In this document: positions 1,923-29,106 of the stretch, in pieces
Layout: each line of letters begins with the position of its first letter
Position numbering within the stretch: position 1 is the first letter of the stretch
Origin: a bacterium
Lineage (GTDB): Bacteria; Hinthialibacterota; Hinthialibacteria; Hinthialibacterales; Hinthialibacteraceae
NCBI GenBank assembly: GCA_963663405.2
Contig: CAXXSM010000163.1
Span: forward strand, 1 to 39,236
Direction: 5' to 3'
Length of the DNA: 39,236 bases
Translations under genes and position numbers: made by a program
Notes under the pieces: generated by a model
Databases searched by the model: none
Seen by the model: the letters and a program-made list of their open reading frames with translations, nothing else
Told to the model about the DNA's origin: nothing

Positions 1923-5143
<3,221 letters not shown>

Positions 5144-13916: not shown

Positions 13917-13933
13917 TGAAATGATTCATATTA

Positions 13934-14153
13934 TTGGTTCATCCGGTAAATGAGTACTATTAGTGAATGTTATTTCTAATGAGAAAGCGCATTCCTCTAT
14001 CCCCAGGATTGAAATCCTAGGCTATTATTTATTGTCCCGGAGGGACATTAGATACTAGCCTAGACTTTTAAGTCTGGTTGAACATAGTTCCGCTTTCTTT
14101 CATGAAAAGGTAATTATTTTTTGCTTTACGTACTCATTTACCGGATGAACCAA
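13934..14153. mobile_element. MITE-like non-autonomous element (220 bp) with internal REP-like hairpins
   Basis: Perfect 24-bp terminal inverted repeats TTGGTTCATCCGGTAAATGAGTAC (13934-13957) and GTACTCATTTACCGGATGAACCAA (14130-14153); no coding capacity; internal hairpins CCAGGATT-GA-AATCCTAG, TGTCCC-GGA-GGGACA and AGACTT-TT-AAGTCT. Confidence 0.7.
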
Positions 14154-14159
14154 AAAAAA

Positions 14160-14368
14160 ACAGACAAAACTGCCGAATGATAACTCTTTCATTTATAAGC
14201 GCTTAAGAAAAATCATCCTTTCCACGTCTCTATTTCTTCGACGAAATCGCCGAATCTAAAATCAGGTCCAATCGATCTCCTTGATCGATATATAATTCAC
14301 TAAACTCATAAATTTCAATGACTTATAATCTTTTTACTTAAAAAAACGAATGTGGCATGTTTCTTTCT
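14160..14368 (+). promoter_or_regulatory. sigma54-type promoter region 1: two activator boxes, IHF-like box, -24/-12 element
   Basis: ACAGAC-N6-GCCGAA (14160-14177), TTCGAC-N6-GCCGAA (14237-14254), TAAACTCATAAATTTCAATGACTTATA (14301-14327), TGGCAT-GTTTC-TTTC (14353-14367, non-canonical -12). Same layout as 18925-19131. Confidence 0.65.
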
Positions 14369-14420
14369 TTATGAAGAGGCAAGAGGAATAAAAGACATTA
14401 CACGCACAAGGAGAGAGATC

Positions 14421-15401
14421 ATGAAGAAACATTATGTAATCATCACTTTAGGAATCTTATCAGCGGGATTGTTTGCGCTCACATCACTGGCCCAAAATAA
14501 TGGAAATGGAAAACAAAGGTTATTGGCCACTCCATCCAATTGCCAAGTTGAATCAGCACAGTATGGAGTCCAAATGAAGGGACAGGGTAATGGACGTGGG
14601 CAGGGCGCTCAAAACGCGAATTCGCAAGCCGGCCCTAATAGTAAACGGATGAAGGGACAAGGTAATGGACGTGGGCGGGGAGCCTTTTGCGCCAATTCGC
14701 AATCCGGCCCTAATAGTAAACGGATGAAGGGACAAGGCAATGGACGTGGGCGGGGAGCCTTTTGCGCCAATTCGCAATCCGGCCCTAATAGTAAACGGAT
14801 GAAGGGACAAGGCAATGGACGTGGGCGGGGAGCCTTTTGCGCCAATTCGCAATCCGGTCCTCATGGTAAACGGATGATGGGACAGGGCAATGGACGTGGG
14901 CAGGAAGCCTTTTGCGCTAATTTGCAAGCCGGTTCTAATGGCAGGCGGATGATGGGACAAGGTAATGGACGTGGGCAGGGAGCCTTTTGCGCCAATTCGC
15001 AATCTGGCCCTCATGGTAAACGGATGATGGGACAAGGTAATGGACGTGGACAGGGAGCCTTTTGCGCCAATTCGCAATCTGGCCCTCATGGTAAACGGAT
15101 GATGGGACAAGGTAATGGACGTGGGCAGGGAGCCTTTTGCGCCAATTCGCAATCTGGCCCTCATGGTAAACGGATGAAGGGACAAGGTAATGGACGTGGG
15201 CAGGGAGCCTTTTGCGCCAATTCGCAATCCGGACCTCATAGCAGACGGATGATGGGACAGGGCAATGGACGTGGGCAGGGCGCTCTATCCGCTAATGCGC
15301 AATCCGGCCCTCATGGCAAGGGTCAGGGCAAAGTAAGGCGTCTGGGTAATCAATATGGAATTGAGAAAATAAATAGTGACGAAGTAGAGAATGAACAATA
15401 G
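14421..15401 (+). CDS. Secreted low-complexity tandem-repeat protein (ten 25-aa Gly/Arg/Gln/Asn/Met/Cys repeats)
   Basis: ATG 14421 after an AAGGAGAG RBS; signal peptide MKKHYVIITLGILSAGLFALTSLA; repeat consensus M(K/M)GQGNGRG(Q/R)GAFCANSQSGP(H/N)(G/S)KR. Confidence 0.85.
   Translation: MKKHYVIITLGILSAGLFALTSLAQNNGNGKQRLLATPSNCQVESAQYGVQMKGQGNGRGQGAQNANSQAGPNSKRMKGQGNGRGRGAFCANSQSGPNSKRMKGQGNGRGRGAFCANSQSGPNSKRMKGQGNGRGRGAFCANSQSGPHGKRMMGQGNGRGQEAFCANLQAGSNGRRMMGQGNGRGQGAFCANSQSGPHGKRMMGQGNGRGQGAFCANSQSGPHGKRMMGQGNGRGQGAFCANSQSGPHGKRMKGQGNGRGQGAFCANSQSGPHSRRMMGQGNGRGQGALSANAQSGPHGKGQGKVRRLGNQYGIEKINSDEVENEQ
14574..15323 (+). repeat. Ten tandem 75-bp coding repeats
   Basis: Unit ATGA(A/T)GGGACAAGGTAATGGACGTGGGC(A/G)GGGAGCCTTTTGCGCCAATTCGCAATC...AAACGG repeats with a 75-nt period; variants are clustered (units 2-3 alike, units 6-8 alike). 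Confidence 0.95.
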
Positions 15402-15456
15402 TATTGATTCCACTCAATTCATATTCCAGTTATAAATCAATTTGCGATTCGGTAAA

Positions 15457-15492
15457 AGAGACGATGAGGTTATTCAACACCTCATCGTCTCT
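15457..15492 (+). terminator. Strong hairpin, probable intrinsic terminator after the repeat-protein gene
   Basis: 14-bp perfect stem AGAGACGATGAGGT / ACCTCATCGTCTCT with an 8-nt loop; weak U-tract. Confidence 0.6.
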
Positions 15493-15554
15493 CGCTTGTA
15501 TTATATATAATATTGTTATGTCTAATATTGAATGTTTTAAGGAGTTTTAATCCA

Positions 15555-17591
15555 ATGGAAACAACTCCTCATGGAGAACAATCTCCCGCCTTGTTTTTTA
15601 GATTTTCCACGTTTCGAACAATTGTTTTGATTGTTCTGATATTCGTGATTGCATGGATAGGAATCAGCGCTTCGCATTACCTGCAGTCCAAACGGCAAAT
15701 TCGCGAATTATTCAGGCGTCAAGCGCATGAGATGGCTTCTATGTTAGCCCTGAGCGAACGATCCATGACGCGCGCGTTAGAACGAATCGAAGACGAACAA
15801 GCGTCGCGGCTAACAGCGATTGGATATTGGCTTCGCGATTTGGATTCCCGGCAGACACTCTCGCTTACCGAAATCCAGCGAGTGGCGGATGAAAGCAGCG
15901 CGTTCAATATAGTGCTGTTCAAGCCCACTGGAGAGCGTGACATAGGATTGCGAGGAGGAGGCCCAAGGTACGGCGCGCCTCCTTGGGCGGGAAGAGGCCG
16001 CATGGGGAGAGGACAAAATTCCCAGCACGAACATTCCACAACGAGTTTCCTTGAATCCGGGGAGGAAGCGGCTGTTGAAGGTTTTCACAAAGCCGGCCGG
16101 ATGGGGGAATTCCGTTTCTCTGTTTTTGTACGGCGAAAAAACGGAGGCGCGATTTTAATCAATCTAGATACGGCGATTCAGGAACAACTGCGCCGGGATT
16201 TCGGACCAGAGGCGTTGCTTAGCCAATTTACTGAAAGACCGGAGATTCTTTATTTACGACGGAAACAGGCGGGAACGATCGATATCGATCTGGGCCATTT
16301 CGATCCCACCGAGAATGAATCCAACGCTGAAGCTGTGGAAGTCAACATTCCAGACCAAGATGATTCCTCACTCATCGTAGGATTTGACAACACCGCCATA
16401 CGCAGAACAGAATACGAACTGTTGCAGCGATTACTCCTATCCGCCGGTTTAGCTGCGACTCTAGGAGCCTTGTTGATCATATGGTCGAGACTGACCAGAC
16501 GTCATGGTCAATTGGCGAAAACCTTGGCGCAAATCTCATCCTACCATCGAACCGTGTTGGAAACGATGGATGACGCTGTACTCGCATGGAACGAACACGC
16601 GGGGATGACATTTTGGAATCCGAAAGCCGAATCCTTGTTTCCCGAATTGAGGAATGCCAAATCCACGGGTAAACTGCCATCTCCAATCGCGAAAATCGCA
16701 GACCAAGCGCGGGAGCCCAATTATGAAACAGTGTTCGACCTTGAAGATAAAGAGAAAGGCCCACGCCGGTTCCGGGTAGTCGAACAACATATCGAGCAAC
16801 CTATCCAAACTCGTTTGCTGCTGCTTTCCGATGTGACCGCTGTAGAAAACGCAACACGGGAAAAAGAGAAACGCGAGCATGTAGAAGCGCTGGCGCGGGC
16901 GGCTTCCGGCGTCGCTCATGAAGTGAGAAATCCTTTGAACGCCATTGATATGACGATTCAGACGATGTGTATGGAACCCTCGACGCTCAACGAGGAAGAT
17001 CGCATCACACTTGAATCCCTGCGGGATGAAATCAAACGCATCAATCGAATGGTGGAACACTTCCTCGCCTATGGAAGGCCCCAACCTCCTGTCTTTTCGG
17101 AAACCGATCTAGGCGCTTTGCTAGAGGACGCTGTATCCTTTATGAAACCAGCCGCACAGGAAAAAAGCGTCGAATTACAATTCAAATCCTCAGGTCCTTT
17201 GAAATTCCAGGCGGACGCGCAACAGATCCGCCAGGCGTTGCTCAATATCATCCTGAATGCGATCGAAGCCTCTTCTGAAGGAAGCGTCATTGATCTCCAC
17301 GTGGAATTAGGAGAGGATGGAATCCGCTGCGTCTGCACGGATCATGGAACAGGGATGACGGACGAACAAATTAATACGATCTTTGATCCCTATGTGACAC
17401 ACAAACCCGAAGGCACAGGTTTAGGGATGTGTATCGTAAAACAAATCATAGAATCTCATCAAGGAAGAATCATCATCCATAGTAAACCGGGAGAAGGAAC
17501 GGCGATCGCGTTTCACTTTCCATACGATAAAAAGGATGATTCTCCCGTTAAGGAGCCGGTGAATGCTGAAAAAAACGATTCTCGTCATTGA
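15555..17591 (+). CDS. Membrane sensor histidine kinase (two TMs, periplasmic sensor, PAS-like, HisKA, HATPase); NtrB/ZraS-like
   Basis: H-box GVAHEVRNPLNAI, N-box QALLNIILNAIEA, DHGTGM, IFDPYVT, GTGLGM. Start ATG 15555 after a TAAGGAG RBS. Confidence 0.93.
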   Translation: METTPHGEQSPALFFRFSTFRTIVLIVLIFVIAWIGISASHYLQSKRQIRELFRRQAHEMASMLALSERSMTRALERIEDEQASRLTAIGYWLRDLDSRQTLSLTEIQRVADESSAFNIVLFKPTGERDIGLRGGGPRYGAPPWAGRGRMGRGQNSQHEHSTTSFLESGEEAAVEGFHKAGRMGEFRFSVFVRRKNGGAILINLDTAIQEQLRRDFGPEALLSQFTERPEILYLRRKQAGTIDIDLGHFDPTENESNAEAVEVNIPDQDDSSLIVGFDNTAIRRTEYELLQRLLLSAGLAATLGALLIIWSRLTRRHGQLAKTLAQISSYHRTVLETMDDAVLAWNEHAGMTFWNPKAESLFPELRNAKSTGKLPSPIAKIADQAREPNYETVFDLEDKEKGPRRFRVVEQHIEQPIQTRLLLLSDVTAVENATREKEKREHVEALARAASGVAHEVRNPLNAIDMTIQTMCMEPSTLNEEDRITLESLRDEIKRINRMVEHFLAYGRPQPPVFSETDLGALLEDAVSFMKPAAQEKSVELQFKSSGPLKFQADAQQIRQALLNIILNAIEASSEGSVIDLHVELGEDGIRCVCTDHGTGMTDEQINTIFDPYVTHKPEGTGLGMCIVKQIIESHQGRIIIHSKPGEGTAIAFHFPYDKKDDSPVKEPVNAEKNDSRH

Positions 17592-18948
17592 AGACGAAGC
17601 CTCACAGCGAAAGGCGTTATGCGCGTTTCTTCATAAAAAAAAGTATCAGATCAATGAGGCCGCCAATCAACAAAACGCGCTGGAACTTTTTGAGAAAGAA
17701 ACATTCGACCTCGTATTGAGCGATATGCGCCTTCCTGACGGCAGCGGCGAAACAATTTTGGAACATGTCAAGAAAATCCGGCCCGATGTTCCAGTGATTA
17801 TCATGACCGCGTATGGTAATACATCGCAGGCTGTAGCCGCGATGCGCAACGGAGCGGCCGATTATATAACCAAGCCACTCGATCTCAATGAACTCGATTT
17901 GATCATCCAACGCGAATTGAAACACTCCACTTTGGTCTCCGAAAACCAGCGTTTGCGTGAAATCGTCGAACAACACAGCCGCGCCAAGAATATGGTCGCC
18001 AACAGCCCGGCAATGCAAAACGTCGTCAATACAGCGTTACGCGCCGCGGATTCAGACGCCACGATTCTCATTCTCGGAGAAAGCGGGACAGGTAAGGAAA
18101 TTCTCGCTCGCGCCGTTCACGCCGCCAGCCCACGGGCGGATAATGCGTTCGTGCCCATCCACTGCGCCGCCATGCCGGAAGGATTGATTCAAAGCGAATT
18201 ATTCGGTCATGAAAAAGGCGCGTTCACAGGCGCCACAGCCCGGCGTCAAGGACGATTTGAACAGGCTGATCAGGGAACCGTCTTTATCGACGAAGTCGGC
18301 GACATCCCTCTGAACATACAGGTTCAGCTATTACGAGTTCTTCAAGAACGGAATTTCGAACGTGTCGGCGGCAATCAAACAATAACCGTTAATGTACGAA
18401 TCATCGCCGCCACAAACAAAAATATCCAAGAAGCGATACAAAACCAGGAATTCAGAGAGGATCTTTATTACCGGCTCGGAGTGATTACCGTAGAGTTGCC
18501 TCCCCTCCGAAAACGGAGAGAAGATATCCCGCCCCTGATCCAACATTTTCTAAAACGCTACGCCCCAGGCCGTTCATTGGAAATCTCCCGTGAAGCCCTG
18601 GACCGGTTGATGAAATATCATTGGCCGGGAAATATCCGGGAGTTGGAGAATGTAATTGAGCGAGCGGTCGTTTTATCCCGTGAAGACATAATCTCCACAT
18701 CCGATTTACCTTCCCACATTGCCGCAGATTCCGGCGAGCGGACAATATCGTTAGATCGTTCCCTTCCCGAGTTGGTCCAGGACCTTGAACAGACACTCAT
18801 CCGTCAAGCGCTCCTAAAAGCAAACGGCAACCAATCCCAGGCGGCGCGATTGTTGGGAATCAGCGAACGCAACCTCCGCTACAAAATCAAAAAATACGGC
18901 GATTCCGATCGTGAATCTGATCAATTCGACGAATCCGGCGATCTCTAA
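17563..18948 (+). CDS. sigma54-dependent response regulator (REC-AAA+-Fis HTH), NtrC/ZraR/AtoC family
   Basis: REC (ILVIEDE, DLVLSDMRLP), GESGTGKE, SELFGHEKGAFTGA, FIDEVGD, WPGNIRELEN, GNQSQAARLLGI; overlaps the kinase 3' end. Confidence 0.96.
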   Translation: MLKKTILVIEDEASQRKALCAFLHKKKYQINEAANQQNALELFEKETFDLVLSDMRLPDGSGETILEHVKKIRPDVPVIIMTAYGNTSQAVAAMRNGAADYITKPLDLNELDLIIQRELKHSTLVSENQRLREIVEQHSRAKNMVANSPAMQNVVNTALRAADSDATILILGESGTGKEILARAVHAASPRADNAFVPIHCAAMPEGLIQSELFGHEKGAFTGATARRQGRFEQADQGTVFIDEVGDIPLNIQVQLLRVLQERNFERVGGNQTITVNVRIIAATNKNIQEAIQNQEFREDLYYRLGVITVELPPLRKRREDIPPLIQHFLKRYAPGRSLEISREALDRLMKYHWPGNIRELENVIERAVVLSREDIISTSDLPSHIAADSGERTISLDRSLPELVQDLEQTLIRQALLKANGNQSQAARLLGISERNLRYKIKKYGDSDRESDQFDESGDL

Positions 18949-19131
18949 TCTACTCAATTCACTAATCTTACAGCCAATCCTTTTTATTCCTCTATAATCG
19001 TTCGACCATTTCGTCGAACAACACGCGATTCATCCTACTATTAAATTCTGAAATAGAAAATACATAAACTCAATAAAAACAATATGTTATAGAAAATAGA
19101 AAAATAAAAAACTCTTGGCACGAGTCTTGTA
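18925..19131 (+). promoter_or_regulatory. sigma54-type promoter region 2: two activator boxes, IHF-like box, -24/-12 element
   Basis: TTCGAC-N6-GGCGAT (18925-18942, inside the regulator 3' end), perfect palindrome TTCGAC-CATTTC-GTCGAA (19001-19018), TAAACTCAATAAAAACAATATGTTATA (19065-19091), TGGCAC-GAGTC-TTGTA (19116-19131). Confidence 0.75.
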
Positions 19132-19188
19132 TTTATATCCTGTCACATAGATTCAAACACATAATTTCAAAGCAAGGAGTAAAGAATC

Positions 19189-20016
19189 ATGAAGAAGCAA
19201 TGGTATTATCAATCCGTCATTATTGGCCTCGCGATCAGTTTTCTTTGCGCAGCCAATATCAGCGAAGCGCAAGGCCGCCGGGGAAAAGGACTTTTGATTT
19301 CCGGCTCCCAGAGAACAAACCAGGGAGCCTTCCAAAACAAAGGAATTCAAGGACAAGGTTTGGGTCAGGGATATTTCTTCATCGATCTTGATGGAGACGG
19401 GATCTGTGATAACACGAACGGGCAAGCAGCGCTGGATCCATTAAGTGACGCTGAGGCAGTCACTCTCACATTTATGCGGGAAGAGGAAAAACTGGCCCGT
19501 GATGTCTATCTAGCCCTATACGACTTATGGTCAAATCCCGTGTTTTCAATGATCGCCAGTTCCGAACAAAAACATATGGATGCGATCAAACGTCAGCTGG
19601 ACACGTATGGTCTTACCGATCCCATTCAAGATACAGGCGTCTTCACAAACGGAGAATTACAATCCCTGTATGATTCTTTACTGACTCAAGGAAGCCAATC
19701 TGTATTGGAAGCGTTGAAAGTGGGCGCTCTAATTGAGGAAGTGGATATCGAAGATCTTCAAATCGCCATCACCGAAACAGAGAATCCCGCTTTGTTACAA
19801 GTTTATACGAACCTGTTGAAAGGCTCAGAGAACCATCTTCGCGCATTCGTCCGGCAAATCGAATTCCTGGGTGAAACCTACAACGCGCAACACCTTTCAC
19901 AGGAGATTGTGGATGAGATTCTTGCCAACACCAACAATCAAGGCGGCCGCCGGAATAACCGGGGAATCACGATTCTTGGAAATTCAAAACGCGGAAATGG
20001 ATACGGCGCCCGGTAA
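19189..20016 (+). CDS. Secreted DUF2202 ferritin-like protein
   Basis: Signal peptide; FMREEEKLARDVY, IASSEQKHM, GALIEEVDIEDL, LLKGSENHLRAF (paired ExxH diiron-type motifs); N-terminal FIDLDGDGICD loop. Confidence 0.88.
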   Translation: MKKQWYYQSVIIGLAISFLCAANISEAQGRRGKGLLISGSQRTNQGAFQNKGIQGQGLGQGYFFIDLDGDGICDNTNGQAALDPLSDAEAVTLTFMREEEKLARDVYLALYDLWSNPVFSMIASSEQKHMDAIKRQLDTYGLTDPIQDTGVFTNGELQSLYDSLLTQGSQSVLEALKVGALIEEVDIEDLQIAITETENPALLQVYTNLLKGSENHLRAFVRQIEFLGETYNAQHLSQEIVDEILANTNNQGGRRNNRGITILGNSKRGNGYGAR

Positions 20017-20105: not shown

Positions 20106-20139
20106 GGAGAGGAGGTGAGGATAATCTCACCTCCTCTCC
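20106..20139. terminator. Hairpin between convergent genes, probable bidirectional terminator
   Basis: Perfect 14-bp stem GGAGAGGAGGTGAG / CTCACCTCCTCTCC with a 6-nt loop; A-rich tract upstream serves the minus strand. Confidence 0.7.
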
Positions 20140-20176: not shown

Positions 20177-22099
20177 TTACTGCAGTTCCCAGTCTATAAC
20201 AATGGAGGCGGCTGATGGAATCGTGAATGGAACGGATTGCAAGTATCCGGTTGGGCCATCACCTGAGTTCGCGGAATCAGCCGAGAAATTCCCGTCGATA
20301 TAAGCGATATGGTCGTTCAGTGAATTATGGAGACCAAGATCTTGCGCGACTTGATTGCCTGACAACCAAGTACTTCCATAACCTTCCGCGCCCGTTATTT
20401 CTTCTTCCCAGTTGGTCATGTCGCCCATTTCAAAGTCAGAATTGGGGAACGCCAATTCAGCGGTCTCGCCATCCCAGAAATAAAAGTCATCTACGCCCAA
20501 CCATGCCCACTCGCTGGTCAGTTGGTCGATGATGAAAAACCGGGCTTGCTTGCCTTGGTGTTCCTCTTGAATATAAAAACGGTACGGGGGATAGTTCCAT
20601 TCATCGATTCCGCCATTGGCATATTGCTCGCGGTTCCAACCGCCGCCTTGGCTGCGCACTTTATAGGCGTAGTCGGAGGAATCGGTAAATTCGCCGTTGG
20701 CGTTCATATCGACTTGCAGCTGGATATCTTTGACATTCCCATCCGGCTGCGCTTTATATCCCGTCTGTCCAATATCAAAGGAGGTAAAAACGCTGCTGGC
20801 GGCATCGGGGATCGGCTGGATGACAAAGACATCAGAGCGAAGTTCGATCCCGGTGTTTCCCCGCACTCCATGATCGTTATTCGCGTCACCTGGTGTGGAG
20901 CCGGAAGCGACCCATACACGGCCTTCGCGAGAGAAATTCGCTCCAGGCCATGCGAAAAAGGTCCAATCGCCTACCGCGCCGGCGGATTTAATTTGGGTCC
21001 ACCCGGGAAGCCCGCCGGAAGGGTGATCGGACAACGCGCGGATGGGAATGCGGCCATTACTTGGATTATCGATGAATCCTTCTGGAAATTCATCTTCGAA
21101 GCCTTCTTCAAAATTCCCGTTACGGATGACGGAGGTATCGTAGTTCATACGAATGTTATCCAATCCGATTCCATCAAACGTATCGTTATCAACCGCAACA
21201 ACTTGCGCGCGGCGTCCTTCCAATCCGGACGTATTCAACATATTGGCTTGCAGGGTGATTCGGTCTTCGTCACTATCGTCAAAAAGGACGCCTTTCAAGG
21301 GCACATCCACACCCTCGGTGTATTCCCCATCGGGATCTTCGGTTTCAGTTCCCACATCGACATAAACCATCAATCCGTTTTCCGTCAACCAAGCGCCTGG
21401 TTTGTCAAAATACGCTGAAACTGGACCGGCGAATGTCCCATAGACAAAACTCGAAACAGGACTTAATACGAACGGTTCGGATTCAATGACAGCGATGGTT
21501 TCATCGCCGTTGATCTGGGTGTTATAGAATTTATCTGTGTTTGAAGAGAGGCTGAATTCTGTATCAACGGTAATCAGCTGATCGGCGGTCGCATCGCCTT
21601 CAACGATCGTCCAACCATTCAAGTTCGGCTCTGCATCAAACCAGCCGTTTGGAACGTTATTGGGAACAACCAATCCATCTGCGTTATTATGACGGATCGA
21701 ATTGACCGCGATATACGCATCGGGCGTTTTGTCGACGATGCGAAGTTTTACGGTTTCTCCCGCATATTCCTCCAGCGCAATGATTACATTCATCCATCCC
21801 GCTTCGGATGTTAGATTGTCGACAAAAATTGTGTCCTGATTGGTTCTAGATTCCCGTACGATTGAAGGATCTTCGGACATCCAATATTCATATGTTCCAT
21901 CCGCTCCGACATCGACACCAATGTCAATTGTTGTATCAGGCGCGGTTTGATCCGCGTGCAAAGCCCACCCATTGGATACCATTTGCACGACCAGAAAGGT
22001 GGGATTATTGCCGTTGTTGTTCGTCGCCGATTGGGAAGGCGCGGCAAGCAACATACATAAGGCCATGATCCCTACGGCGCGTAATACATTTGTTTTCAT
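20177..22099 (-). CDS. Secreted acidic protein with three internal beta-sandwich (CBM-like) repeats
   Basis: AAGGAG RBS, signal peptide MKTNVLRAVGIMALCMLLAAPSQS; three copies of N..F(D/E)..G...(G/N)W, S.(P/V)F.(I/L) and G......VD......(I/L).(V/L)(D/N) patterns. Confidence 0.8.
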   Translation of the reverse strand: MKTNVLRAVGIMALCMLLAAPSQSATNNNGNNPTFLVVQMVSNGWALHADQTAPDTTIDIGVDVGADGTYEYWMSEDPSIVRESRTNQDTIFVDNLTSEAGWMNVIIALEEYAGETVKLRIVDKTPDAYIAVNSIRHNNADGLVVPNNVPNGWFDAEPNLNGWTIVEGDATADQLITVDTEFSLSSNTDKFYNTQINGDETIAVIESEPFVLSPVSSFVYGTFAGPVSAYFDKPGAWLTENGLMVYVDVGTETEDPDGEYTEGVDVPLKGVLFDDSDEDRITLQANMLNTSGLEGRRAQVVAVDNDTFDGIGLDNIRMNYDTSVIRNGNFEEGFEDEFPEGFIDNPSNGRIPIRALSDHPSGGLPGWTQIKSAGAVGDWTFFAWPGANFSREGRVWVASGSTPGDANNDHGVRGNTGIELRSDVFVIQPIPDAASSVFTSFDIGQTGYKAQPDGNVKDIQLQVDMNANGEFTDSSDYAYKVRSQGGGWNREQYANGGIDEWNYPPYRFYIQEEHQGKQARFFIIDQLTSEWAWLGVDDFYFWDGETAELAFPNSDFEMGDMTNWEEEITGAEGYGSTWLSGNQVAQDLGLHNSLNDHIAYIDGNFSADSANSGDGPTGYLQSVPFTIPSAASIVIDWELQ

Positions 22100-27323: not shown

Positions 27324-28277
27324 TTATATATTTTTTTTACGTGATTTGTTCTTAGTCTCAGCGGCGCTTCTTTTTTCCCAATCTTCTTGTAGACCTGGCA
27401 CTTCGTCACGAAGAAACGCGTAAAATTCATCCCGAAGATCTTTGCGATAGAGAGCGAATTCAACCGTGGTTTTTAAATAATCCAACCGGTTCCCGATGTC
27501 GTGACGTTTGCCTTCAAATTCATACGCGTACATGCGTTGATCTTGGCACATCATTTTTAACGCGTCGGTCAGTTGGATTTCGTTGTTCTTCCCGGGCGGC
27601 GTTTTTTCAATGTATTCAAAAATATCCGCTGTGAGGATATAACGTCCACCTACAGCGAGATTGGACGGCGCGGATTCCACATCCGGTTTTTCAATCAGGT
27701 CATGTACGATACTGGTCCGTTCATCCACCGGTTTACCTTGTATGATTCCGTAATTAATGACCTTATCATCAGGCACTTTTTCAACCCCGATAACCGGTCC
27801 GCGCCAAACCCGGAAAAAGTCCATCAGCTGTTTCGTACAAGGTGAGGGAGACTTGACAATCGTATCCCCAAGCAATACAACAAAAGGCTCACCCGCCACA
27901 TGCTGCTTGGCGCAGTAAATCGCATCACCCAATCCTTTGCAGACCTTTTGACGGATAAAATGAATATTGACGAGATTGGAGATTTCCGTGACGCTTTTGA
28001 GCAATTCCGTATGTCCGGATTCCTCTAATGCGTTTTCCAATTCGAGAGATCGGTCGAAGTGATCTTCAATGGACCGTTTGCCCTTCCCCGTAATAATCAA
28101 AATATCCGTGATTCCCGAATCCACCACTTCTTCGATCACATATTGGATCGTCGGTTTATCAATTAATGGCAGCATTTCTTTTGGCTGCACTTTTGTGGCG
28201 GGTAAAAACCGGGTCCCCAATCCCGCCGCTGGGATGACGGCTTTTCGAACTTCACCGGAATGCAATTCAGAATTCAT
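27324..28277 (-). CDS. galU: UTP--glucose-1-phosphate uridylyltransferase
   Basis: KAVIPAAGLGTRFLPATK..PKEMLP, GLGDAI, LLGD, EIQLTDA. Start ATG 28277 after GGAGG. Confidence 0.96.
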   Translation of the reverse strand: MNSELHSGEVRKAVIPAAGLGTRFLPATKVQPKEMLPLIDKPTIQYVIEEVVDSGITDILIITGKGKRSIEDHFDRSLELENALEESGHTELLKSVTEISNLVNIHFIRQKVCKGLGDAIYCAKQHVAGEPFVVLLGDTIVKSPSPCTKQLMDFFRVWRGPVIGVEKVPDDKVINYGIIQGKPVDERTSIVHDLIEKPDVESAPSNLAVGGRYILTADIFEYIEKTPPGKNNEIQLTDALKMMCQDQRMYAYEFEGKRHDIGNRLDYLKTTVEFALYRKDLRDEFYAFLRDEVPGLQEDWEKRSAAETKNKSRKKNI

Positions 28278-28308: not shown

Positions 28309-29106
28309 TCAATCCGCATGGCGGGATCGTCCACGGCCCCTTTTTTGGTGACTTCGGACTTCATCAAGCCGGAAATCATCCGCTTTAATTTCAATTTCTA
28401 CACACATATCGATGATACGGGACGCGAGAGATCTGTCAACTTGAACGCTGTTTCTCACGTCCTGCATTGTGATATTGGACGTAATGACGATTGTTTTACA
28501 GTCCTGGTAACGGCGGTTAATCAGCGCATACAACCGGTCCGCGACCCAGCTTGACATTTTTTGCATTCCGAAATCATCTAAGACGATAATCTGCCTTTTC
28601 AAATCACGCTCAAGACGATTTTTGGGGATCCCAGAATTTTTCGGATCATATGTGGACCGGATCGCATCTAATAAATCGACAACATTATAGAAAACACCTT
28701 CGAATCCTCTCGCAATGAGGGCTTTCAAGATCCCGACGGCGATGTGTGTTTTCCCGACTCCCGTCTGCCCATAGATATAGAGTCCTTTTGAATTTTCGAG
28801 AGAATATTCCTCCACATATTTTTTTGCTTTTTTTTTCAATTCTTTCAGCGCGCTGGTTCGGGTTTCAAAGGTATCCAGGCTTGCTTTGGCGAATCGCTGG
28901 GGAATACGCGCGTCATCGATTTCCGTTTGAATCACTTCCGCATCACGCATCGGCAAGGGCGCGCGCCCGTTTCATCTATGATGTTCCCATAGCCGTCACA
29001 GAGTTCACACCGGGCGTCGGGGATCCTGTTCGGGAAGAGTATCTTGGTTGTTTACTCTCTCTAAAAGGTTTTCCAAATCTTTGTTGATGGATGAAAATCG
29101 TTTCAT
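28309..29106 (-). CDS. DnaC/DnaI/IstB-like AAA+ helicase loader with N-terminal Zn-binding motif (two apparent frameshifts)
   Basis: GLYIYGQTGVGKTH, LDDFG, LINRRY, ITSN, SRI. Upstream ATG 29106 (GAGGA RBS) reads MKRFSSIN..., then with 1-bp corrections at G4 (29019-29022) and TT (28936-28937) gives CELCDGYG...ARPCRC in front of ORF 28309..28956. Confidence 0.85.

Follow-up and report, generated by a model that had tools for sequence, protein, structure and literature searches.

A sigma-54 two-component locus of the Hinthialibacterota with a shared candidate enhancer upstream of two exported neighbours, a DUF2202 ferritin-like protein and a repeat protein

What do a sensor kinase and a sigma-54 activator control when they are set between two genes for exported proteins, and to what might they respond? 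This question is raised by four genes in a stretch of 39,236 nt (hereafter the window) of contig CAXXSM010000163.1, assembly GCA_963663405.2, from a bacterium of the phylum Hinthialibacterota. The genes follow one another on the + strand (14421-20016) in the order repeat protein, histidine kinase, NtrC-type sigma-54 activator and DUF2202 protein, and the positions of the open reading frames (ORFs) bear out this order and the single strand, as given in an initial annotation made from the sequence alone. That annotation had proposed a ZraPSR-like module, and in ZraPSR a membrane kinase and an NtrC-type sigma-54 activator induce the gene of a neighbouring periplasmic accessory protein (accessible part of PMC4987338). 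The answer reached here, which we hold with more confidence than doubt, is that a small sigma-54 regulon lies wholly within the locus and likely serves a periplasmic metal, redox or envelope-stress response. The regulatory part of this answer, namely one kinase-activator pair and two predicted sigma-54 promoters with a shared enhancer, is well supported by sequence comparison; we infer the signal and the role (metal, redox or envelope stress) from a ferritin-like fold and from Cys/Met/His and Asp-rich motifs.

The kinase gene (15555..17591, +) and the activator gene (17563..18948, +) overlap by 29 nt. The gene of the exported repeat protein (14421..15401, +) encodes 326 aa from an ATG with the ribosome site AAGGAGAG; the ORF as listed opens earlier, at GTG 14352, and ATG 14421 was preferred with this ribosome site. 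The gene of the exported DUF2202 protein, which is ferritin-like and of the MJ0754 type, occupies 19189..20016 (+). The signal peptides claimed for the two flanking proteins were judged by eye from the translations, which supported them: in both, a start rich in Lys leads into some 18 hydrophobic residues and then into a cleavage region rich in Ala. A hairpin had been claimed behind each flanking gene, and both are present. The one located 3′ of the repeat-protein gene (15457..15492, +) is terminator-like, with 14 pairs, -26.6 kcal/mol and a z of -6.35, and none of 200 shuffles folded equally well. The other (20106..20139; -30.4 kcal/mol, z -5.8) lies between the DUF2202 gene and a convergent minus-strand gene of 640 aa, and it may serve both genes, because the better T-run is on the minus strand.

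Upstream of both flanking genes the common pattern TGGCAY-N5-TTKY was found. It reads TGGCAT-N5-TTTC before the repeat-protein gene (14353..14368, +; 68 nt before ATG 14421) and TGGCAC-N5-TTGT before the DUF2202 gene (19116..19131, +; 73 nt before ATG 19189). Compared with the sigma-54 consensus TGGCAC-N5-TTGC, the -24 element and the spacing are kept at both sites, and in the -12 element the G is replaced by T at the first site and the C by T at the second. For the repeat-protein gene a candidate enhancer, TTCGAC-N6-GCCGAA (14237..14254; 23.4 bits), precedes the -24 element by 116 nt; for the DUF2202 gene the perfect palindrome TTCGAC-N6-GTCGAA (19001..19018; 28.0 bits) does so by 115 nt. A distal candidate for the DUF2202 gene (18925..18942; 20.4 bits) is found 76 nt further upstream, still within the 3′ end of the activator gene. 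As a second enhancer of the repeat-protein gene, the region at about 14160-14178 was rejected, with scores under 9 bits.

These scores come from a weight matrix built with 10 sites of five relatives from the phylum, in which no site of the window's own genome (G000; an assembly of 8.44 Mb, 82% complete) was included. Over the whole of G000 the sites at 19001, 14237 and 18925 ranked first, second and fifth. The pattern TTCGAC-N6-GYCGAA occurs at 7 distinct sites in the assembly, and an intergenic sigma-54-like element at the appropriate distance follows only the sites at 19001, 14237 and 18925. A site at 28041, with 16.7 bits and a sigma-54-like string nearby, was rejected as a regulon member, as it falls inside a nucleotidyl-transferase gene. 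The view of the flanking genes as co-regulated targets is thus upheld by an enhancer that they share at equal distance and by promoters that are the sole ones of this kind found in the genome. Their sigma-54-type upstream regions, which had been described as matching, do so in the elements and in the palindrome, but one base of the -12 GC is off at each; both elements are made credible by the shared enhancer and by the comparison with relatives. Upstream of the kinase gene in G000 neither a palindrome nor a -24/-12 element was found, and hence the kinase-activator pair is apparently made independently of its own signal.

We then compared the locus with the rest of the phylum, represented by 35 species genomes (G000 plus 34 others). 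The sensor region of the kinase was found in six of them, G000 and the relatives G009, G014, G016, G020 and G021. In all five relatives the kinase-activator pair adjoins a gene whose exported product has 223-326 aa (in G016 the gene is cut by the contig end after 140 aa), and these targets carry FVDxDGDGxCD repeats, Gly/Arg(/Met)-rich linkers and C-terminal LTxxQ motifs. The Pfam LTXXQ model (cut-off 24.3) was exceeded by the target of G014 (43 bits), the targets of G009 (22.5), G020 (17.2) and G021 (15.8) stayed below it, and NCBIfam gave weak CpxP/Spy matches. The target promoters of the five relatives all hold one or two copies of the palindrome and a canonical TGGCA-N6-xTGC element. As read from the sequences, the palindrome is 116-117 nt from the -24 element in three relatives and 102-104 nt in two; paired palindromes 75-79 nt apart, as before the window DUF2202 gene, are also present in G009, G020 and G021, and G014 and G020 have a palindrome before the kinase gene. 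In G021 a DUF2202 gene (63% identical) is located about 680 kb from the two-component system, with no regulator adjoining, and this unlinked gene also has a palindrome and a sigma-54 element upstream. When 30 loci with exact-palindrome matches in the five relatives were inspected for further regulon members, only the known target promoters were intergenic with a sigma-54 element.

Conservation was also examined outside the phylum, in 80 DUF2202 loci from named genomes (841,399 nt, with 6-kb flanks) that had been retrieved with the window DUF2202 protein and are therefore biased by likeness to this query. A full sigma-54 response regulator was detected by tblastn in 22 of the 80 loci, within 500 nt of the DUF2202 ORF in 15 cases; an earlier, ORF-based count of activator-holding loci had given 15. 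These loci belong to Chromatiaceae, Competibacteraceae, Pontiella, Kiritimatiellales, Ignavibacteriales, Melioribacteraceae, a Bacteroidota metagenome-assembled genome (MAG) and a deltaproteobacterial MAG. The synteny check called for by the initial annotation thus returned the system in 5 of the 34 other phylum genomes, and sigma-54 response regulators at these 22 loci. With the matrix of the phylum relatives, 25 matches of at least 15 bits were obtained in the 841,399 nt, nine of which, the three best among them, are found 41-201 nt ahead of the DUF2202 ORF start at eight loci (L099, twice, L097, L084, L044, L057, L079, L072 and L035). Furthermore, sigma-54-like elements with at least 9 of 11 matches were found near the DUF2202 start in 7/14 activator-linked loci and in 9/59 other loci, compared with 1.3-1.7% of shuffled windows.

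The regulators were placed in a quick IQ-TREE phylogeny (LG+G4, SH-aLRT only) of 37 rows: the 6 activators of the phylum, 15 DUF2202 neighbours, 12 paralogues from G000 that aligned over at least 400 aa and 4 proteins of E. coli; 8 shorter paralogue matches and the activators found by the tblastn count alone were left out. The six phylum activators form one clade (support 100), whose sister is formed by the activators of loci L081 and L099 (SH-aLRT 99), which are 48-50% identical, vs 42% for the best G000 paralogue. The gammaproteobacterial (8) and Kiritimatiellales (4) activators form separate clades. The circuit of activator lineage, palindrome and DUF2202 is, on the evidence of the sites and the tree, conserved in other phyla. 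DUF2202, which had been put forward as a second, add-on effector, appears instead to belong to the conserved core of what this activator lineage controls in different phyla.

By its domains, the activator is an NtrC-family sigma-54 enhancer-binding response regulator: Response_reg (96.8 bits), Sigma54_activat (239.9) and HTH_8 (54.3) all score over the Pfam cut-offs, and the GAFTGA motif is visible in the translation. The kinase consists of a transmembrane (TM) helix, a periplasmic dCache-like domain, a second TM helix, a weak PAS domain, HisKA (46.6 bits) and HATPase_c (83.4 bits). No Pfam dCache model matched the window kinase, and the kinase homologue of L081 gave a weak dCache_3 match (E 0.0059). 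Residues 1-316, modelled with AlphaFold2 on the basis of 46 sequences, gave a pLDDT of 88.6, and with the modelled sensor Foldseek retrieved the dCache sensors KinD, Mlp24, Tlp3, DctB and CqsR with probability 1.00 (E 1.8e-5 to 6e-4, TM 0.3-0.44 on the target). The model has the dCache layout, with a long stalk helix and two PAS-like alpha/beta modules between the two TM helices; as modelled, the sensor has a dCache fold. Among 1.84 billion representative proteins a profile search recovered 208 members of the sensor family at E ≤0.001, 10 of them at E ≤1e-30, and nothing was found with the sensor query in metagenome contigs.

In the sensor model a Gly/Arg-rich stretch forms a low-confidence loop in the membrane-distal module. 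This loop has 30-45 residues and is present in 6/6 of the phylum genomes with the kinase; it has 30 residues in the window kinase and contains 24% Met in G014. Long Gly-rich loops recur at the same position in many distant members of the sensor family and are absent in L072 and L081. The Gly/Arg/Gln motifs that had been quoted for the three extracytoplasmic parts are all present, but their likeness is one of composition and cannot be aligned: the sensor loop has 23% Gly and 13% Arg, and the repeat protein 24% Gly and 9% Arg. When the composition of the loop and that of the target were followed across the six genomes, no clear co-variation was seen beyond the shared richness in Gly and Arg.

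The DUF2202 protein matches its Pfam family (PF09968) with 192.9 bits (cut-off 22) and consists of a signal peptide, a disordered Gly/Gln-rich N-terminal part, a four-helix-bundle core and a Gly/Arg/Asn-rich tail. In the model the core (residues ~83-250) has a pLDDT of ~97, and residues 23-76 and the C-terminal tail are disordered. The same core is found in MJ0754 of Methanocaldococcus jannaschii (PDB 3q4n, 3q4o, 3q4q and 3q4r; E 1.8e-46), and the model superimposes on 3q4r, whose title gives MJ0754 with Zn2+, with Z 28.6 and an rmsd of 1.1 over 168 residues (48% identity in the structural alignment). Unlike MJ0754, the window protein is exported and has disordered Gly/Arg-rich ends, and at position 214 it has Glu where MJ0754 and 45% of the relatives have Arg. 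The family-invariant residues E98-100, E126, H129, E183, D186, D189, S213 and H216 are all present, which in the model points to a ferritin-like bundle with a conserved Glu/His site of the dimetal type. The Dps-like protein PA4880, a mini-bacterioferritin and bacterioferritins share the four-helix bundle and the Glu/His ligands (Z 17-19, rmsd 1.6-1.9 over ~134 residues), but with 14-19% identity, and those proteins are cytoplasmic while the window protein is exported and nothing points to its forming a cage. The DUF2202 family is large: 7,578 of 8,000 scored candidates reached E 1e-5; among 82 relatives inspected, nearly all have a signal-peptide-like start and many have Gly/Lys/Arg-rich ends.

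In addition, the N-terminal part of the window DUF2202 protein contains, by pattern only, one FIDLDGDGICD unit, which is the repeat unit of PF27309 proteins, a family that the Atlas names MJ0753_N. Precomputed Pfam annotation places PF27309 on the targets of G021, G020 and G009 (P0152, P0156 and P0158), and its listed members are small exported proteins with FVDxDGDGxCD units, Gly/Arg/Gln linkers and Gly/Arg/Met tails. PF09968 and PF27309 occur in one protein in 1 of 120 listed DUF2202 relatives. DUF2202 and PF27309 look like a functional pair, because their genes stand side by side in L072, L081 and L099, and the FVDxDGDGxCD motif is fused to the DUF2202 C-terminus in L084 and L097; the locus tags suggest that MJ0753 and MJ0754 are likewise adjacent in the archaeon. 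In L072, L081 and L099 the PF27309-type proteins also adjoin an orthologous kinase or activator and an outer-membrane-barrel-like gene.

This last gene, of ~340-376 aa and without a Pfam family, is conserved inside DUF2202/sigma-54 two-component modules of several phyla (L081:10232-11362, L072:3475-4593 and L099:155-1276, with similar genes in L036, L040, L042, L046, L068, L069 and L082). One copy reaches SlipAM (25.4 bits, cut-off 22), its product is probably an outer-membrane barrel, and tblastn gave no match for it in G000. As for published work, the parts accessible of the full-text literature on DUF2202, PF09968/COG4902 and MJ0753/MJ0754 give no function or regulator, and in those of two papers on sigma-54 regulons (PMC4641369 and PMC12316311) no ferritin-like protein and no DUF is mentioned. 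In the available part of a study of ferrosomes (10.1101/2020.01.10.902569), DUF2202 is listed among the conserved proteins of these iron-storage gene clusters, and DUF4405 is also named. The window shares the family DUF2202 with the ferrosome (fez) clusters, but neither the P1B-ATPase FezB nor FezC was seen in it, and a DUF4405 membrane protein is found in the target operon of one relative only. There (G021, L017:11197-11973, minus strand; 58 bits) it has a Gly/Arg-rich tail and is encoded between the LTXXQ/PF27309 target and the kinase gene.

The repeat protein has a Lys-rich start, a hydrophobic signal-like segment, ten units of 25 aa and a short acidic tail. The units, with the consensus MKGQGNGRGQGAFCANSQSGPHGKR, are of the Gly/Arg/Gln type with Met and Cys and often His (one Cys in 8/10 units), and they correspond to a tandem array of 75-bp units (14574..15323, +, in the unit register; TRF: 14574-15316, period 75, 9.9 copies, 91% matches). 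The distinct variants between units are 13 synonymous and 17 non-synonymous, with 14/30 at third codon positions, which gives mild support to the annotated reading frame. No Pfam or NCBIfam family was matched, and no homologue at E 0.001 was obtained among 177 scored candidates from a collection of 5.8 billion proteins, a search whose low-complexity filter may hide relatives. The ESM Atlas held no relative (best 0.77), nothing was found in JGI metagenome contigs, and two matches in the 34 other phylum genomes (E 0.002-0.004) were judged to be noise. As far as these searches go, the repeat protein is a lineage-specific, recent addition that would stand in place of the PF27309/LTXXQ protein of the relatives, and the proposal that it replaces ZraP is plausible.

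Elsewhere in G000, the minus strand of contig C22 (54234-55709) encodes a second exported repeat protein of 491 aa, which matches at 32% identity and is built of units rich in Arg, Gly and Met, such as GMRPGMRRGFRGQGEGPEGMRAGMGRGF. It lies about 2.8 kb from a sigma-54 response regulator (C22:58479-59864), the closest paralogue of the window activator (42% identity).

Taken in order, the proposed mechanism would be as follows. The kinase-activator operon (15555-18948) would be expressed on its own, and the kinase, to judge from its domains, would sense a periplasmic signal through the dCache-type domain and phosphorylate the activator. The activator would then bind TTCGAC-N6-GTCGAA about 115 nt upstream of the two sigma-54 promoters, where the conservation of the site is observed and binding is what it suggests, and would switch on two single-gene transcripts, those of the repeat protein and of the DUF2202 protein. 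Both induced products would be exported, the repeat protein as a disordered string of units. A wider reading, which we advance tentatively and consider possible rather than probable, is that the locus belongs to an undescribed, widespread regulon in which one activator lineage acting on TTCGAC-N6-GTCGAA serves the MJ0753/MJ0754-type pair in periplasmic metal handling, from archaea-derived families to several bacterial phyla, with the PF27309/LTXXQ partner replaced here by the newly amplified repeat protein. In this reading, as the Gly/Arg-rich loop of the kinase resembles the disordered tails of the effectors, these or their ligand may feed back on the sensor, by analogy with ZraP and CpxP.

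Several observations weigh against the proposed regulon. The -12 GC reads TC at 14353-14368 and GT at 19116-19131, and the promoters of all the relatives are canonical; moreover, a loose sigma-54 pattern occurs in the window at the level of chance (6 matches vs 5.17 expected, with 45/100 shuffles reaching 6). The training sites had been gathered with a regular expression that itself came from the G000 sites, and the matrix test is thus not fully independent. No terminator separates the activator gene from the DUF2202 gene, and read-through could add to the expression of the latter. Among sequencing runs, none of RNA was listed for the locus. The rpoN gene (Pfam Sigma54_DBD) was not found in G000, an incomplete assembly as stated above; it is present in 33/35 phylum genomes, and G000 has 36 Sigma54_activat matches. 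The copy number of the array rests on the assembly, as no public contig spans it, and a likeness between the repeat protein and the Gly/Arg tail of the G021 target was dropped (BLASTP E 3.7). Finally, dCache domains usually bind small organic ligands and give no pointer to metals.

This last point leads to the alternative that the circuit is as described and that its signal or task does not concern metal, so that the sensor would bind a small organic molecule or another envelope cue and the effectors would act in oxidant defence, in mineral or sulfur handling or in the binding of anionic polymers. The fold of the sensor matches amino-acid, carboxylate and purine receptors, the window neighbours include no metal gene, many of the nearest DUF2202 loci of the query-biased sample come from sulfur-oxidising Chromatiaceae and relatives and from Pontiella, and the Arg-rich disordered stretches could bind polyanions. 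Yet the core of the DUF2202 protein is nearest in fold to Dps-like proteins and bacterioferritins and keeps the Glu/His ligands, MJ0754 was crystallised with Zn2+ according to the 3q4r title, the family is listed for ferrosome clusters in the part of that study cited above, and the repeat units carry Cys, Met and His; on balance we consider a non-metal role rather unlikely. A more radical doubt concerns the repeat ORF, which might be a non-coding or mis-assembled tandem repeat, with DUF2202 as the sole target. The searches of protein collections, of the 34 phylum genomes and of metagenome contigs yielded no relative, an open frame of 228 aa also runs through the array on the opposite strand, and the public contigs of the likely source sample, identical to the window, break inside the array at a depth of ~2-6. 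Nevertheless, the gene has its own enhancer at the same distance from the -24/-12 element as that of DUF2202, a ribosome site precedes it, its product starts with a signal peptide and a strong terminator hairpin follows; the frame is open over 326 codons, 13 of the 30 distinct unit differences are synonymous, and contigs of a second study, from a strain ~95-96% identical, hold the 5′ and 3′ parts of the gene with the same neighbours in the same order. This explanation is therefore improbable.

The locus could also be a diverged ZraPSR orthologue. The general logic of kinase and sigma-54 activator is that of ZraPSR of E. coli and Salmonella, the target gene adjoins the regulator genes in both, ZraR and ZraS are among the best NCBIfam matches, and in the relatives the induced protein carries the LTXXQ motifs of the CpxP/Spy/ZraP family. 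Against this, the activator scores 431.9 bits with ZraR, far under the equivalog cut-off of 760, and AtoC (502.3) and NtrC (450) score higher, while the kinase matches ZraS with 164.7 bits (cut-off 479) and only in the kinase core, residues 435-659. In the tree of the regulator against ZraR, AtoC and NtrC that had been asked for, ZraR falls outside the clade of the window activator, as do AtoC, NtrC and GlrR of E. coli, whose placement is unresolved in the tree. As its sensor the kinase has a dCache domain that carries a Gly/Arg-rich loop, and no ZraS chain is among the Foldseek matches listed for this sensor, which is weak as negative evidence. The genes are in tandem and not divergent, no autoregulatory promoter was found before the kinase gene, and of the two targets, the ferritin-like DUF2202 protein and the repeat protein, which is an orphan, neither gave an LTXXQ match; tblastn with the LTXXQ targets of the relatives found no LTXXQ protein in G000 and recovered only the N-terminal part of DUF2202. 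By these scores and by the tree, the activator and the kinase are not orthologues of ZraR and ZraS, and it is very improbable that the locus is a diverged ZraPSR orthologue. The description as a ZraPSR-like module thus stands for the LTXXQ motifs of the relatives' targets and not for the activator, kinase and sensor, and the locus would work like ZraPSR in its logic without being a member of that system.

The genes around the locus, which encode glycoside hydrolases, an ABC transporter, a heparinase II/III-type protein and FG-GAP/TPR proteins, have no obvious connection to the four genes. The 640-aa product of the gene that converges on DUF2202 and shares its hairpin (20177-22099, minus strand) is exported and without a Pfam family. 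A beta-galactosidase is split in two ORFs (1923-5128, minus strand), a GH2 large part of 739 aa and a Bgal_small_N part of 240 aa with a gap of ~260 nt; either the gene is disrupted or the enzyme consists of two subunits. An IstB-like IS21 helper ATPase ORF (28309-28956, minus strand; 215 aa), with no transposase ORF of normal size adjoining, may be an insertion-sequence remnant. A 236-nt element (13925-14160) directly precedes the control region of the repeat-protein gene. Its terminal inverted repeats of 27 nt (13931-13957 / 14130-14156) are 96% complementary, and they enclose a further inverted repeat of 36 nt. By blastn the element has 46 matching segments (~67-93% identity) on many contigs of G000, and from these features it looks like a member of a family of miniature inverted-repeat transposable elements; two copies adjoin other sigma-54 activator genes (C149, ~181.2 kb, and C75, ~20.4 kb).

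What is new in the regulon proposed here is the conserved enhancer, the link between activator and DUF2202 across phyla, the pairing of DUF2202 with PF27309 and the lineage-specific repeat protein. DUF2202 is a large family with a solved structure, and the locus supplies it with a regulator lineage, a DNA site and a recurrent partner family, PF27309, so that the function of both families becomes directly testable. The locus also illustrates how the cargo of a regulon may change within one phylum, as what the same kinase, activator and enhancer drive would be a chaperone-like LTXXQ protein in some cases, and a ferritin-like or a newly arisen repeat protein in others.

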